Shown here in pieces: positions 3,335-23,854 of a DNA stretch of 64,000 nucleotides (the stretch's first letter is position 1; the number at the start of each line of letters is the position of its first letter). Origin of the DNA: Escherichia coli (GTDB lineage Bacteria; Pseudomonadota; Gammaproteobacteria; Enterobacterales; Enterobacteriaceae); assembly GCF_013122565.1 (NCBI RefSeq), contig NZ_CP053258.1. One strand, given 5' to 3'. Below the pieces are notes generated by a model. The model had not been told where the DNA came from. It saw nothing but the letters and a program-made list of their open reading frames with translations, and did not search any database. The translations under genes were made by a program, and so were the position numbers.

Positions 3335-6011
3335 CGAACCCTTACGTCCCGACCCCGACCGTCTGCTGGAACAAACTGCCGCGCCGCATCGGGGGAAGCT
3401 GAAAGTTTTCTTCGGTGCCTGTGCAGGCGTCGGGAAGACCTGGGCGATGCTGGCAGAAGCCCAGCGACTGCGGGCGCAAGGGCTGGATATTGTGGTTGGC
3501 GTGGTAGAAACCCACGGGCGAAAAGATACCGCCGCCATGCTGGAAGGGCTGGCTGTTCTGCCGTTAAAACGCCAGGCGTACCGTGGGCGGCATATCAGCG
3601 AGTTTGATCTCGATGCCGCCCTCGCCCGCCGCCCGGCGCTGATCTTAATGGACGAACTGGCGCACAGTAATGCGCCAGGTTCTCGTCATCCTAAACGCTG
3701 GCAGGATATCGAAGAACTGCTGGAAGCTGGCATTGATGTTTTCACAACCGTCAACGTTCAGCATCTGGAAAGTCTGAATGATGTGGTCAGCGGCGTCACC
3801 GGAATTCAGGTACGGGAAACCGTGCCCGATCCTTTTTTCGATGCCGCCGACGACGTGGTTCTGGTGGACTTGCCCCCGGACGATCTGCGCCAGCGGCTGA
3901 AAGAAGGCAAAGTCTATATTGCCGGGCAGGCGGAGCGCGCCATTGAACATTTTTTCCGCAAAGGCAATCTGATCGCCCTGCGCGAACTGGCACTGCGCCG
4001 TACTGCTGATCGCGTTGATGAGCAAATGCGCGCCTGGCGGGGGCATCCTGGCGAAGAGAAAGTGTGGCACACGCGCGACGCGATCCTTTTATGCATCGGC
4101 CATAACACCGGCAGCGAAAAACTGGTCCGCGCAGCGGCGCGGCTGGCGTCACGGCTGGGTAGCGTCTGGCACGCGGTGTATGTTGAAACCCCTGCCCTGC
4201 ATCGCTTACCGGAGAAAAAACGTCGGGCAATTCTCAGCGCCTTACGTCTGGCGCAGGAGCTGGGCGCGGAGACGGCAACACTTTCTGATCCAGCGGAAGA
4301 GAAAGCGGTAGTGCGTTATGCCCGTGAACATAATCTCGGCAAGATTATTCTCGGTCGCCCAGCCTCGCGCCGCTGGTGGCGTCGGGAAACGTTTGCTGAC
4401 CGACTGGCGCGCATCGCTCCCGATCTCGATCAGGTGCTGGTCGCGCTTGATGAACCACCCGTCCGCACGATTAACAACGCGCCGGATAGCCGCTCTTTTA
4501 AAGACAAGTGGCGGGTACAGATTCAGGGATGCGTGGTTGCCGCCGCGTTATGCGCCGTTATCACCTTAATTGCTATGCAGTGGCTGATGGCGTTTGATGC
4601 CGCCAACCTGGTGATGCTGTATCTGCTTGGCGTGGTGGTGGTCGCGCTATTTTATGGACGCTGGCCTTCGGTGGTTGCTACCGTCATTAATGTGGTGAGT
4701 TTCGATCTCTTTTTTATCGCCCCACGCGGCACGCTCGCCGTCTCTGATGTGCAATATCTGCTGACCTTCGCGGTGATGTTAACCGTCGGGCTGGTGATCG
4801 GGAACCTTACTGCGGGTGTGCGTTATCAGGCGCGGGTAGCCCGTTACCGCGAGCAACGCACACGGCACTTATATGAAATGTCGAAAGCTCTGGCGGTGGG
4901 CCGCAGTTCGCAGGACATCGCCGCCACCAGCGAACAATTTATTGCCTCCACGTTTCATGCCCGCAGTCAGGTGTTGTTGCCCGATGACAACGGTAAATTG
5001 CAGCCGTTAACACATCCGCAAGGAATGACGCCGTGGGACGATGCCATCGCGCAGTGGAGTTTTGATAAAGGCCTGCCTGCGGGTGCGGGCACCGACACGT
5101 TACCCGGCGTGCCGTACCAGATTTTGCCGTTAAAAAGCGGTGAGAAAACCTACGGGCTGGTGGTGGTGGAACCGGGGAATCTGCGTCAGTTGATGATCCC
5201 GGAACAGCAGCGCCTGCTGGAGACGTTTACGCTGTTAGTCGCCAATGCGCTTGAGCGGCTGACGCTGACCGCCAGCGAAGAACAGGCGCGGATGGCAAGC
5301 GAACGGGAACAGATCCGCAACGCCCTGCTGGCGGCGCTTTCGCATGATTTACGCACTCCGCTTACGGTGCTGTTCGGTCAGGCAGAAATCTTAACGCTCG
5401 ATCTGGCAAGCGAAGGATCGCCCCACGCCCGCCAGGCCAGCGAGATCCGTCAGCACGTGCTGAACACTACCCGACTGGTGAATAATCTACTGGATATGGC
5501 GCGAATTCAGTCCGGCGGCTTTAATTTGAAGAAAGAGTGGTTAACGCTGGAAGAAGTAGTCGGCAGCGCGCTGCAAATGCTGGAACCGGGTTTATCGTCG
5601 CCCATCAATCTTTCTCTGCCAGAACCGCTGACCTTAATCCACGTTGACGGGCCACTCTTTGAACGGGTGCTGATTAATCTGCTGGAGAACGCGGTGAAAT
5701 ACGCGGGTGCGCAGGCCGAAATTGGGATCGATGCCCACGTTGAGGGCGAAAATCTACAACTGGATGTCTGGGATAACGGCCCCGGTCTTCCGCCAGGCCA
5801 GGAGCAGACGATATTTGATAAGTTTGCTCGCGGGAATAAAGAGTCGGCAGTACCGGGGGTAGGGCTTGGGCTGGCAATTTGTCGGGCGATAGTGGATGTA
5901 CACGGGGGCACTATTACCGCGTTCAACCGACCGGAAGGTGGTGCCTGTTTTCGTGTTACACTTCCCCAGCAAACCGCTCCTGAACTTGAAGACTTTCATG
6001 AGGATATGTGA
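3327..6011 (+). CDS. kdpD: Sensor histidine kinase KdpD
   Basis: 894 aa from ATG 3327 ([16 protein letters not shown]...); N-terminal KdpD domain with P-loop GACAGVGKT, four TM helices, C-terminal HisKA/HATPase; overlaps kdpC end. Confidence 0.93.
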
Positions 6012-6685
6012 CAAACGTTCTGATTGTTGAAGATGAACAGGCTATTCGTCGCTTTCTGCGCACGGCGCTGGAGGGCGACGGTATGCGCGTCTTTGAGGCC
6101 GAAACGCTGCAACGCGGCTTGCTGGAAGCGGCAACCCGTAAGCCAGATTTGATTATTCTCGATCTCGGCCTGCCCGACGGTGATGGGATTGAGTTTATCC
6201 GCGACCTGCGCCAGTGGAGCGCGGTGCCGGTGATTGTGCTTTCCGCACGCAGCGAAGAGAGCGACAAAATCGCCGCGCTGGATGCCGGAGCGGATGATTA
6301 TCTGAGTAAGCCGTTTGGCATTGGCGAATTGCAGGCCCGTCTGCGCGTCGCATTACGCCGCCACTCTGCCACCACCGCGCCCGATCCGCTGGTGAAATTT
6401 TCCGATGTTACCGTCGATTTAGCCGCCCGCGTGATCCATCGCGGTGAGGAAGAGGTGCATCTCACCCCGATTGAGTTTCGCCTGCTGGCAGTGCTGCTCA
6501 ACAACGCCGGAAAAGTACTCACCCAGCGCCAGTTACTCAATCAGGTGTGGGGGCCAAACGCGGTCGAACACAGTCACTATTTGCGTATTTATATGGGACA
6601 TCTGCGACAAAAACTGGAACAGGATCCCACTCGCCCCCGCCATTTCATTACTGAAACCGGTATTGGGTATCGGTTTATGCTTTGA
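6008..6685 (+). CDS. kdpE: Response regulator KdpE (OmpR family)
   Basis: 225 aa, receiver domain plus winged-helix; GTG start overlapping kdpD stop (ATGTGA). Confidence 0.93.
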   Translation: MTNVLIVEDEQAIRRFLRTALEGDGMRVFEAETLQRGLLEAATRKPDLIILDLGLPDGDGIEFIRDLRQWSAVPVIVLSARSEESDKIAALDAGADDYLSKPFGIGELQARLRVALRRHSATTAPDPLVKFSDVTVDLAARVIHRGEEEVHLTPIEFRLLAVLLNNAGKVLTQRQLLNQVWGPNAVEHSHYLRIYMGHLRQKLEQDPTRPRHFITETGIGYRFML

Positions 6686-6808
6686 AAAAAGTGGCAATGT
6701 ATGGATAAAGTCATTTTTTATTCAAATATAAGGAACTTAATATTTAAAAAATGTTCCATACAATTCCTCATCATAAATGACACCGTAGCACACAAGGAGC
6801 AAGTAGCG

Positions 6809-7459
6809 ATGCGTGAAATAAATCAGTTAGTAAATACTGAAGATTCAGCCTGGCCAATAATCCAGAACTGGTTAAAAGACGCCACAAACCATACCGAACT
6901 CTTACCGGTTAATAAAGATTTAGCCGAAACCGCACTTTATCAATTACAGGTGACAACAAAATCACCGATGGGTGCGCTTGTCTATGGCTCCGGAGGTCTA
7001 CTGATTGATAATGGTTGGTTACGCATAGCAGGCTCTGGTCACCCCCGGTTGCCACGAGATCCAGTAAGTTGGACACAACGCCCTGAATTCGCAGGCGTGC
7101 GGGCTTTACCCATCGCTGACGATGTCGCAGGGGGAATTTTTGCTCTTAATGGTGGCGATCTTGGGGAAGATACTGGCTGCGTTTATTATTTTGCGCCAGA
7201 TACGCTGAATTGGGAAAGTCTGGAAGTTGGATATTCTGAGTTTCTTCAGTGGGCATTATCCGGTGATTTAGATACCTTCTATGAAAATGTACGATGGCAG
7301 CAATGGCGAGAAGACGTAATAAAATTATCGGCAACGGAAGCCTTCACGTTCTACCCTTTCTTATGGGTACAAAGTGAAGAAGCAAGAACAAGAAAAGTTA
7401 TTTCGCTTACTGAACTCTGGGAAATGCAGTATCAAATGAAAGAAACATTCACTCAATAA
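6809..7459 (+). CDS. ybfG: Hypothetical protein, YbfG-like (DUF2625-type); apparently intact
   Basis: 216 aa from ATG 6809 preceded by AGGAG; the track ORF extends upstream to 6701 through AT-rich sequence with no RBS; position between kdpE and ybfP. Confidence 0.6.
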   Translation: MREINQLVNTEDSAWPIIQNWLKDATNHTELLPVNKDLAETALYQLQVTTKSPMGALVYGSGGLLIDNGWLRIAGSGHPRLPRDPVSWTQRPEFAGVRALPIADDVAGGIFALNGGDLGEDTGCVYYFAPDTLNWESLEVGYSEFLQWALSGDLDTFYENVRWQQWREDVIKLSATEAFTFYPFLWVQSEEARTRKVISLTELWEMQYQMKETFTQ

Positions 7460-7499
7460 GACATGTTCAGGTCCGGGTTTCATTCCCGGACTCACTATT

Positions 7500-7994
7500 T
7501 TAATGTGTGTTTATCGCTTTCAATTCTTGCTGGCATTTTTCTGACTGGCAGCGTCGCAACTCAATAATCCCGACATGCATCATCGAGCCAAAAAATCCGC
7601 TTTCGCTGACATAATCCTCATTGACTATCGGTCGAGTGCCGGGCTTGCCCTGGCAAACCCGCATAAAAAATGAGGTGTAGCATTGCCAACCGGGATTTAA
7701 ACCGACCTTTTCTTGTGCTGACATATCGTGAAGATAAGTAAGTTCTTTTTCGTTCCCGCCTGACAACTGCCAGCTGCGGGTATTATCAGGTAAGTTATCG
7801 CCACGGCAATTTGTCTTACACCGGGAAGGTGCAATATTTACCGCAATGCTACCCGTTAATCCTCTGGTTTTATCTTTAGGGGTCAGTAACCAGTCGCCAG
7901 CTAATGATGATTGTTCAGGTTGGGCGCATGCAGTCAGCAGTAATGTGGCGGTAATTAGTGACACTATGACGACCAGACTCCTGTTGGTCTTCAT
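7500..7994 (-). CDS. ybfP: Putative lipoprotein YbfP
   Basis: 164 aa; N-terminal signal peptide with lipobox LLLTAC. Confidence 0.8.
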   Translation of the reverse strand: MKTNRSLVVIVSLITATLLLTACAQPEQSSLAGDWLLTPKDKTRGLTGSIAVNIAPSRCKTNCRGDNLPDNTRSWQLSGGNEKELTYLHDMSAQEKVGLNPGWQCYTSFFMRVCQGKPGTRPIVNEDYVSESGFFGSMMHVGIIELRRCQSEKCQQELKAINTH

Positions 7995-8044
7995 TGGGAT
8001 TTCCTTGAGCTACTCAGTTTGTTGACAAAGTGTTCGTTGTTTTT

Positions 8045-8078
8045 GCCGGATGCGGCGTGAACGCCTTATCCGGCCTAC
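8045..8078. repeat. REP element (gccggatgcggcgtgaacgccttatccggcctac)
   Basis: Matches REP consensus; forms a BIME with the inverted copy at 8114-8142. Confidence 0.85.
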
Positions 8079-8113
8079 AAAATCGCGTAAATTCAATATA
8101 TTGCACCATCCTC

Positions 8114-8142
8114 GTAGGCCTGATAAGCGTAGCGCATCAGGC
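8114..8142. repeat. REP element, inverted copy (gtaggcctgataagcgtagcgcatcaggc)
   Basis: Reverse complement contains ATCAGGCCTAC; REP consensus. Confidence 0.85.
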
Positions 8143-8163
8143 AATTCTGTGTTTGTCATACGT

Positions 8164-8199
8164 AAAAAAGGGCGATCTTCTGACCGCCCTTTTTCTTAT
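8164..8199. terminator. Bidirectional rho-independent terminator between pgm and ybfP
   Basis: GC stem gggcg/cgccc flanked by an A-run on one side and a T-run on the other (aaaaaagggcgatcttctgaccgccctttttctt). Confidence 0.7.
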
Positions 8200-8208
8200 T
8201 TAATGTGT

Positions 8209-9849
8209 TTACGCGTTTTTCAGAACTTCACTAACAATCTCAACCGCTTCTTTCTCGATCTGCTTGCGATGTTCTTCACCGAGGAAGCTTTCGCAATAAA
8301 TCTTGTACGCGTCTTCCGTGCCTGACGGACGCGCGGCGAACCAGCCGTTGTCAGTCATCACTTTCAGACCGCCGATAGAAGCACCGTTGCCCGGTGCCGC
8401 CGTCAGGCGCGCGGTGATCGGGTCGCCTGCCAGGGTGCTGGCGCTCACCATTTCCGGAGACAGCTTAGACAGCGCCGCTTTTTGTGCGGAAGTCGCAGCT
8501 GCCTGCAAACGGTTGTAGCTCGGCGCACCAAAGCGTTTTGCCAGTTCGTTGTAGTGTTCCTGCGGATTCTTACCGGTGACAGCGGTGATTTCCGCCGCCA
8601 GCAGACACATGATGATGCCGTCTTTGTCGGTGGACCATGGCGTGCCGTCGAAACGCAGGAAGGAAGCCCCTGCGCTCTCTTCGCCGCCAAAGCCGAAGCT
8701 GCCGTCGAACAGACCATCAACAAACCATTTGAAACCTACCGGGACTTCTACCAGCTTACGGCCCAAGTCATTGACCACACGGTCGATCATCGCAGAAGAA
8801 ACCAGCGTTTTACCGACAGCAACATCTTTGCCCCACTGCGGACGATGCTGGAACAGGTAGTTGATCGCCACCGCCAGGTAGTGGTTCGGATTCATCAAAC
8901 CTGCCGGAGTGACGATACCGTGACGGTCATAATCCGGGTCGTTAGCAAACGCCAGATCGAACTTATCACGCAGTGCCAGCAGGCCCGCCATCGCACACTC
9001 GGAGGAGCAGTCCATACGGATCGCGCCGTCTTTATCAAGGTGCATAAAGCGGAACGTTTGATCGACCTGATCGTTAACGATAGTCAGGTTGAGGTTGTAA
9101 TACTCGCCAATACGCTTCCAGTATTCGATACCGGAACCGCCCAGCGGATCAACGCCAAGCGTCAGGCCCGCCTTCTGAATCGCCGCCATATCAACGATAT
9201 CGGCCAGCCCTTCCACGAACGGCTGCACCAGATCCTGCTCTTTCACATGACCGGATGCCATCGCTTCGTCGAGGGAGATACGCTTCACGCCTTTCAGGCC
9301 ATCGGCCAGCAGTGCGTTGGCACGATCTTCCACCACTTTAGTGACGTTGGTATCAGCCGGGCCACCATTTGGCGGATTGTACTTGATACCACCATCTTCC
9401 GGCGGGTTATGGGACGGTGTAATCACGATACCGTCTGCCAGCGGGCCACCTTTTTTATTGTGAACCAGGATGGCATTGGAAACGGCAGGCGTCGGGGTGA
9501 AGCCATTGTTTTCCTGCACAATAACATCTACGCCGTTCGCTGCCAGCACTTCCAGAACGGAAATAAATGCAGGTTCGGACAGGGCGTGAGTATCTTTACC
9601 CACATAGCAAGGGCCAGTGATGCCGTTTTTCGCACGTTCTTCAGCAATTGCCTGAGCGATCGCCAGAATGTGCGGCTCGTTAAAGCTGTGGCGCGCTGCA
9701 CTGCCACGGTGACCGGAAGTACCGAATTTCACCGCGTGCTCCGCATTCCCTGCTTCTGGTTTCAGTACATAATATTGCGCCGTCAGTTGGGCGACGTTAA
9801 TCAAATCACTCTGTTGTGCAGGTTGGCCTGCACGATTGTGGATTGCCAT
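8209..9849 (-). CDS. pgm: Phosphoglucomutase
   Basis: 546 aa from ATG ([16 protein letters not shown]...); phosphohexomutase active-site motif TPSHNP; the track ORF is extended 17 codons upstream. Confidence 0.95.
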
Positions 9850-9874
9850 TGCTTTGTCCTTTGTCTGCAACGTG

Positions 9875-10420
9875 TTAGATAGTTCCGCAAACCTTCTCAA
9901 TCAATTCCGCCGGGAATTGCATCGACTGCATGATGTGTTCGATCATGCTGCATTTACGGCCGGTGTTGGTGTTGGTGATCACCCAATACGGCGTGCCTGG
10001 CACATGTTTCGGCTTGGTCTGATTACCATTTTTCAGCAGCGTTTGTTCATCTGCCGCAAAGTAAACGCGCGTACGACCGTGCAACGATTCCGTTGCTTCG
10101 GCAAACGCCTGGGCGTCAAGAGAATATAGTGTAGACAACAGCAGCATAAAGCGATTGACCGCTCGCTTTTGCTCTGCGTATTCATCCGAAAGCAGAAGTT
10201 CACGCATTGCGCGAACCTTGTCTTTAATCGTTTTGACCGGCTTCGCTTCGACGATAGCAGGTGACGCAACGCGAACCTCTTTCGTCACCGGAGCAGCAGG
10301 CTGTGATGCGGCGGAAAATTTCAACATACGCCGTAAAATGTCGGATGCGCTCTCGCCGATATGCTTAGTGTGGCTGGCAATATAGCTGTAGAGTTCATCA
10401 TCAACTTCAATCGTTTTCAT
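9875..10420 (-). CDS. seqA: Negative modulator of replication initiation SeqA
   Basis: 181 aa from ATG ([19 protein letters not shown]...); upstream of pgm in the same orientation. Confidence 0.93.
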
Positions 10421-23755: not shown

Positions 23756-23785
23756 TGCCTGATGCGCTACGCTTATCAGGCCTAC
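23756..23785. repeat. REP element (gcctgatgcgctacgcttatcaggcctac)
   Basis: REP consensus ending ATCAGGCCTAC. Confidence 0.85.
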
Positions 23786-23820
23786 GCAGCTCCTGCAATA
23801 TATTGAATTTTCATGCTTTT

Positions 23821-23854
23821 GTAGGCCGGATAAGGCGTTCACGCCGCATCCGGC
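23821..23854. repeat. REP element, inverted (gtaggccggataaggcgttcacgccgcatccggc)
   Basis: REP consensus; forms a BIME with 23756-23785. Confidence 0.85.

Follow-up and report, generated by a model that had tools for sequence, protein, structure and literature searches.

The interval 8045–8142, within a window of 64,000 nucleotides of Escherichia coli DNA (the whole stretch that was analysed), is very probably a canonical single-copy BIME-1 (RIP/RIB), in which a y REP is joined to an inverted z1 REP by a 35-nt L linker that carries an IHF-type site. It lies between ybfP and pgm, and the letters of its REP feet suggest that they are substrates for the bridge-RNA-guided recombinase of IS621, so that this copy would be susceptible to insertion. 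It differs from the natural IS621 targets in REPs in that it is empty, in the window as well as in all 5,426 complete E. coli genomes searched. Much has been published on REPs, on BIMEs and on the preference of IS621 for the CTAC foot of a REP, and the pgm-ybfP copy is itself already known and ordinary. The earlier note had described a BIME with CT-core REP motifs in both orientations at this place. This description is borne out by the sequence, by the palindromes and by the abundance of the shared motif: ATCNGGCCTAC is found four times in the 64-kb window against 0.07 copies expected, and four copies were obtained in 0 of 100 shuffles. Two of the four sites are the arms at 8045–8142, and the other two belong to a mirror-image twin at 23757–23854.

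A BIME-1 has been defined as a z1 REP paired with a y REP in inverse orientation, with GTAG/CTAC feet, present in single copy, with a long and well-conserved L linker in which an IHF site is frequent (Ton-Hoang et al. 2012, PMC3333891). The y-type REP, a palindromic unit that ends in CTAC, occupies 8045–8078 on the plus strand and reads GCCGGATGCGGCGTGAACGCCTTATCCGGCCTAC; it was delimited from its sequence, the imperfect palindrome I3 and a motif match. It terminates in ATCCGGCCTAC (8068–8078, plus strand), with the CT core at 8075–8076. The 35-nt L linker follows at 8079–8113 and has the sequence AAAATCGCGTAAATTCAATATATTGCACCATCCTC. The z1-type REP, delimited from its sequence and a motif match, lies on the minus strand at 8114–8142, where the plus-strand letters are GTAGGCCTGATAAGCGTAGCGCATCAGGC and those of the minus strand GCCTGATGCGCTACGCTTATCAGGCCTAC. 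Its minus-strand end is ATCAGGCCTAC, running from 8124 to 8114 with the CT core at 8117–8116. The feet are thus CTAC at 8075–8078 and GTAG at 8114–8117. Each arm was assigned to its type from the consensus sequences of the REP types together with the definition given above. Both the repeat finder and the RNA fold showed that the two arms are imperfect palindromes with mismatched stems, and the repeat finder showed that they are inverted repeats of each other. The y-L-z1 unit occurs once between 7994 and 8164, with no tandem array, and no IS lies between the two REPs. The interval therefore combines inverted y and z1 REPs, GTAG/CTAC feet, palindromes, a conserved long linker and single-copy status, and its structure shows no difference from that of other E. 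coli BIME-1 elements, including its extragenic location behind a terminator.

The linker core TTCAATATATTGCA is common to the sister BIME in the same window, to K-12 and to many of the BIME-1 targets in the published list of IS621 sites. Within the linker, ATTCAATATATTG at 8091–8103 has one mismatch to the IHF consensus WATCAANNNNTTR. At one mismatch this pattern occurs 63 times in the window against 53 times expected, which is no enrichment; the motif alone is insufficient, and the candidate IHF site is assigned from membership of the BIME-1 family. From what is known of this family, the transcripts of a BIME-1 would be expected to form stable hairpins across the element, and its DNA to provide a site that IHF can bend. 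IHF binding and an effect on RNA stability may likewise be presumed for the pgm-ybfP element. Folding of the minus-strand RNA from the end of pgm to the start of ybfP gave –72.8 kcal/mol (z = –5.78), with the terminator hairpin followed by two REP hairpins. The intergenic region between pgm and ybfP in K-12 MG1655 could be aligned base for base; it differs by a single substitution in the linker and by minor changes in the loop of the terminator. The same element is present in BL21(DE3), where the z1 target is found at NZ_CP053602.1:676454-676464 on the plus strand and the y site some 40 nt further downstream on the opposite strand.

In E. coli, the locus corresponds to the region of kdpE / ybfP / pgm / seqA. 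The gene pgm (phosphoglucomutase), placed by the ORF list, the RefSeq annotation of matching genomes and the K-12 alignment, is encoded on the minus strand at 8209–9849, with its stop codon at 8209–8211. The lipoprotein gene ybfP (ORF list, K-12 alignment and annotation) lies on the same strand at 7500–7994; its start codon is 50 nt past the y REP, and the BIME is thus located within the ybfP upstream region. A rho-independent terminator hairpin that can be used in both directions spans 8164–8194 (inverted repeat I4, RNA fold). It consists of an A6 tract (8164–8169), an 8-bp stem (8170–8177/8182–8189) with a 4-nt loop, and a T5 tract (8190–8194), and the letters of the hairpin at 8170–8189 are GGGCGATC-TTCT-GACCGCCC. 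The hairpin with A and T tracts that had previously been noticed beside the BIME is accordingly real, being recovered by the repeat finder and by the RNA fold. In the minimum-energy fold of the minus-strand RNA, the terminator hairpin has 14 bp. A consensus scan of 7900–8300 for terminators and promoters reported nothing, the hairpin at 8164–8194 included; this hairpin was probably missed because its A tract pairs with its T tract, which leaves no free T tail.

On the minus strand, the hairpin at 8164–8194 terminates pgm ahead of the BIME. Read in the direction of pgm transcription, the stop codon (8211–8209) is followed by the stem (8189–8170), the U tract (8169–8164), the z1 REP (8142–8114), the linker, the y REP and ybfP, and 21 nt of unique sequence separate the z1 REP from the A tract of the terminator. 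The same hairpin with A and T tracts forms the bidirectional potE/pgm terminator of O157-type E. coli. In O157:H7-type genomes, potE and pgm converge on it with a 56-bp spacer and no BIME, whereas in the window no plus-strand gene enters the hairpin and only the side that faces pgm has an obvious client. The two-faced shape of the hairpin makes sense because potE and pgm converge on it in other alleles, and it is conserved in all of the locus arrangements examined. A different insertion sequence was seen in strain GPEC1185 (NZ_CM142790.1, about 1900–2400), where an IS200C lies between the z1 REP and the terminator hairpin, outside the REPs.

The natural target of IS621 is ATCAGGCCTAC; the bridge RNA of the element encodes ATCGGGCCTAC, and the two differ at position 4, where an rG:dT pair is tolerated (Durrant et al. 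2024, PMC11208160). In an IS621 assay in BL21(DE3), ATCAGGCCTAC was found at 129 of the 173 insertion sites (PMC11208160). The z1 arm follows the 11-nt rule ATC(A/G)GGC-CT-AC exactly, as ATCAGGC-CT-AC at 8124–8114 on the minus strand. The y arm, in which ATCCGGCCTAC reads ATCCGGC-CT-AC, breaks the rule by one mismatch at position 4, where the pairing scheme would allow no wobble pair. Insertions into REPs of both variants exist in nature, as a search for IS110-family elements in such REPs had been expected to reveal if these are landing sites. Copies of wild-type IS621, with a left end like that of the reference and an unaltered bridge-RNA region, were found in a y REP at ATCCGGC|CT|AC in strain JE86-ST05 (hypF-norW), where the left end equals the reference over 190 nt and the target loop of the bridge RNA is unchanged, and in strain F8704-2 (yjgA-mpl), where the y REP is identical at 32 of 32 positions to the one at 8045–8078. 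A further copy, in strain A5, sits at ATCCGAC|CT|AC. Left-end junctions of IS621 were present in 2,169 of the 5,426 complete E. coli genomes. A junction with a z1-type REP covered at least 80% of the query in 1,550 genomes, and 1,180 records had the exact z1 REP joined to the left end at 99% identity or more; z1 REPs are used by IS621 much more commonly than y REPs.

Occupancy of the locus was examined with a junction test, in which chimeric queries joining the ends of IS621 to locus-specific flanks were searched against the 5,426 complete E. coli genomes. As positive control we used the sister BIME-1 between nagD and asnB. Motif matches and alignment place it at 23757–23854 in mirror orientation, where a plus-strand z1 REP is followed by the L linker and a minus-strand y REP, and it has both REPs and the linker core in common with the element at 8045–8142. 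The same junction design was applied to this sister, and its query was fully covered (100%) at 99.1% identity in E. coli HS as well as in no fewer than 14 further genomes. In the RefSeq record of E. coli HS, an IS621 transposase is annotated between nagD and asnB; the site taken is the z1 site, and the 50-mer of the sister BIME-1 is an exact match to the natural-target entry seq255. A search with junction chimeras thereby cleanly tells occupied from empty BIMEs across thousands of genomes, and it can be reused.

For the pgm-ybfP locus, the junction k-mers expected of an occupied site are ACAGTATCTACGAGGATGGTGCAATATA and ACACAGAATTGCCTGATGCGCTACGCTTATCAGGCCTTGTATTATCCC. No place in the 5,426 complete genomes matched the left junction of the z1 site with at least 80% query coverage, and the same result was obtained there for the left junction of the y site. 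The right junction of the z1 site matched only other BIME-1 loci in these genomes, with 89–91% coverage and 91–94% identity. The best of these right-junction matches were considered as an occupied pgm site in a divergent lineage and were rejected, as they represent the dppA-dppB BIME-1. The z1-linker-y context of the pgm-ybfP copy is the same as that of the occupied dppA-dppB and nagD-asnB elements. The 5' flank of ybfP was found once each in 2,112 genomes, and in 2,084 of these genomes ybfP, the BIME and the end of pgm are contiguous. A large insertion or rearrangement between ybfP and pgm could thus be present in 28 genomes at most, and an IS621 junction was found in none of these. Metagenome contigs were also scanned for the exact pattern of the occupied right junction, TATCTACGAGGATGGTGCAATATAYTGAAT, and no match was obtained. 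The description of the element as unoccupied thus holds for the window, with no IS between the arms, and for the complete E. coli genomes, with no IS621 junction at the locus.

Next to this negative outcome of the comparative search that the earlier note had proposed, there is one indirect positive. The published natural-target entry TBL_ATCGGGCCTAC_seq813 is the 50-mer CTGATGCGCTACGCTTATCAGGCCTACGAGGATGGTGCAATATACTGAAT, which is identical to the minus strand of the window at the z1 site in 49 of 50 positions and identical in 50 of 50 to a site in E. coli SCPM-O-B-8794 that lies beyond the pgm terminator and is unoccupied. Its 27-nt core was found in two copies among 100,044 species-representative genomes, both of them unoccupied and only downstream of pgm. 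The occupied genome from which seq813 derives was found neither in the metagenome scan nor among the complete genomes. Since this entry equals the orthologous pgm-side site exactly, a relative of IS621 probably used that site at least once, in some lineage. This bears on the proposal that the pgm-ybfP copy resists IS621 although its 11-mer is perfect, or that insertions here are selected against, in which case the element would be a BIME-1 but no functional landing site. Occupancy by IHF, the local context or the cost of parting ybfP from its upstream region could each be the cause. The proposal would account for the finding that IS621 is present at this site in none of about 2,100 genomes that carry the locus, while its left-end junctions are as widespread as described above and the sister BIME-1, which lies in the same window and whose z1 REP and linker core are identical, harbours IS621 in E. 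coli HS and other genomes. However, the presence of exactly the orthologous site in the natural-target list speaks against it. Occupancy counts, moreover, mirror descent rather than independent events, and a genome has more than 100 exact sites (129 were hit in BL21(DE3)), so that zero occupancy at any one of them would be unsurprising. A refractory site is considered unlikely.

A susceptible BIME-1 with one exact and one near-exact target also differs from what the earlier note had proposed, namely near-cognate IS110-family landing sites in both arms and, since the terminator is adjacent, a disruption of pgm termination by any insertion. Both motifs and the hairpin are present, and the candidate landing sites stand, as each arm carries an IS621-type CT-core 11-mer. 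The label near-cognate is right for the y arm, as ATCCGGCCTAC is truly one mismatch off the IS621 target, but wrong for the z1 arm, where ATCAGGCCTAC is the exact natural target (PMC11208160). The claim on termination fails on the order of the features. Because pgm (9849–8209) and ybfP (7994–7500) are both on the minus strand, the stop codon and the terminator (8189–8164) precede the BIME (8142–8045), and the termination of pgm would be undisturbed by an insertion. The predicted crossovers, at 8116/8117 and 8075/8076, are located at least 47 nt downstream of the U tract, in the upstream region of ybfP. If IS621 recombined at the CT core, its 1,279 bp would come to lie between a REP stem and the linker, in the orientation of pgm and ybfP at the z1 site and facing the terminator at the y site. 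Either insertion would spare the pgm terminator and part ybfP from its upstream sequence, and the likely effect would be on whatever drives ybfP. In strain GPEC1185, the hairpin sequence has stayed intact despite the IS200C next to it. Taken as a whole, the reading with two near-cognate arms and a disrupted terminator is improbable. Still less probability can be given to the idea that the region 8045–8142 is the source of a small RNA derived from REPs, of the type of naRNA4 or ES036, instead of being a passive repeat. Matches to Rfam were obtained for naRNA4 (RF02564; 41.5 bits, 8011–8075, minus strand) and ES036 (32.6 bits, 8079–8121, plus strand), but these scores fall under the curated gathering thresholds of 59.5 and 37.6, respectively. 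Both families were built from REP/BIME sequence, and any BIME will therefore resemble them. In addition, no promoter-like site was reported by the consensus scan of 7900–8300.

Several further observations concern the REP feet and their occupants. In some lineages (L002, L003 and L010, aligned to 8112–8117), the GTAGG of the z1 foot is replaced by GCAGG or CCAGG, which turns the IS621 target into ATCAGGCCTGC or ATCAGGCCTGG, with loss of the right-hand AC. Between znuB and ruvB of the ST131 strain 5506 (NZ_CP103508.1, 1598–1710), a 61-nt fragment of the IS621 left end is flanked by 13-nt direct repeats of the y-REP half CCTTATCCGACCT. The relic stops just short of the part of the left end that encodes the target loop of the bridge RNA, and an IS3-family element is found in a neighbouring REP. 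A sampled ranking suggests that several hundred genomes share a relic of this type. The y-junction matches of the 95%-identity class, which were considered as intact IS621, represent this 61-nt left-end relic and were rejected. Another candidate occupant was a second IS110 group, the bridge RNA of which encodes ATCCGGCC, for which 245 natural targets in y-like REPs are listed (PMC11208160, supplementary files 11 and 15). The sequence ATCCGGCC equals the first eight bases of the y motif. This group was dropped, as no match to its bridge-RNA sequence was obtained in any of the 5,426 complete E. coli genomes; the group therefore belongs to other bacteria.

The interval between kdpE and pgm is variable, with at least five gene arrangements across E. 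coli (window 6008–8209 compared with the loci L001, L003, L004, L010 and L011). In K-12 the order is potE, ybfI, ybfG, ybfP and the BIME. The window has kdpE, an intact DUF2625 gene (6701–7459), ybfP and the BIME, and is devoid of speF-potE. Strain K12a has kdpE, ybfP and the BIME, and in strains ETEC6334 and SCPM-O-B-8794 kdpE directly abuts the y REP. About 61% of genomes have only the end of pgm and the terminator in common with the window, with the match beginning near 8162; both ybfP and the BIME are missing from these genomes, in which potE runs straight towards the pgm terminator from the opposite side. Where the BIME is present, it stays joined to the pgm terminator in every arrangement. 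The REP-associated transposase cleaves at CC|TAC. It is conceivable, though we attach little probability to it, that the BIME-1 marks and perhaps helps to create a recombination boundary, the alleles having arisen by REP-directed recombination, either through the REP-associated transposase or through bridge-RNA-guided recombination by IS621 between REP targets. Recombination of the latter kind has been seen as rare donor-independent deletions and inversions (Durrant et al., PMC11208160). The 5' flank of ybfP (window 7845–8044) is 100% identical to that of K-12-type genomes, whereas the best match of the 3-kb region that includes pgm (6900–9900) has only 98.8% identity. This contrast suggests a mosaic ancestry across the BIME.
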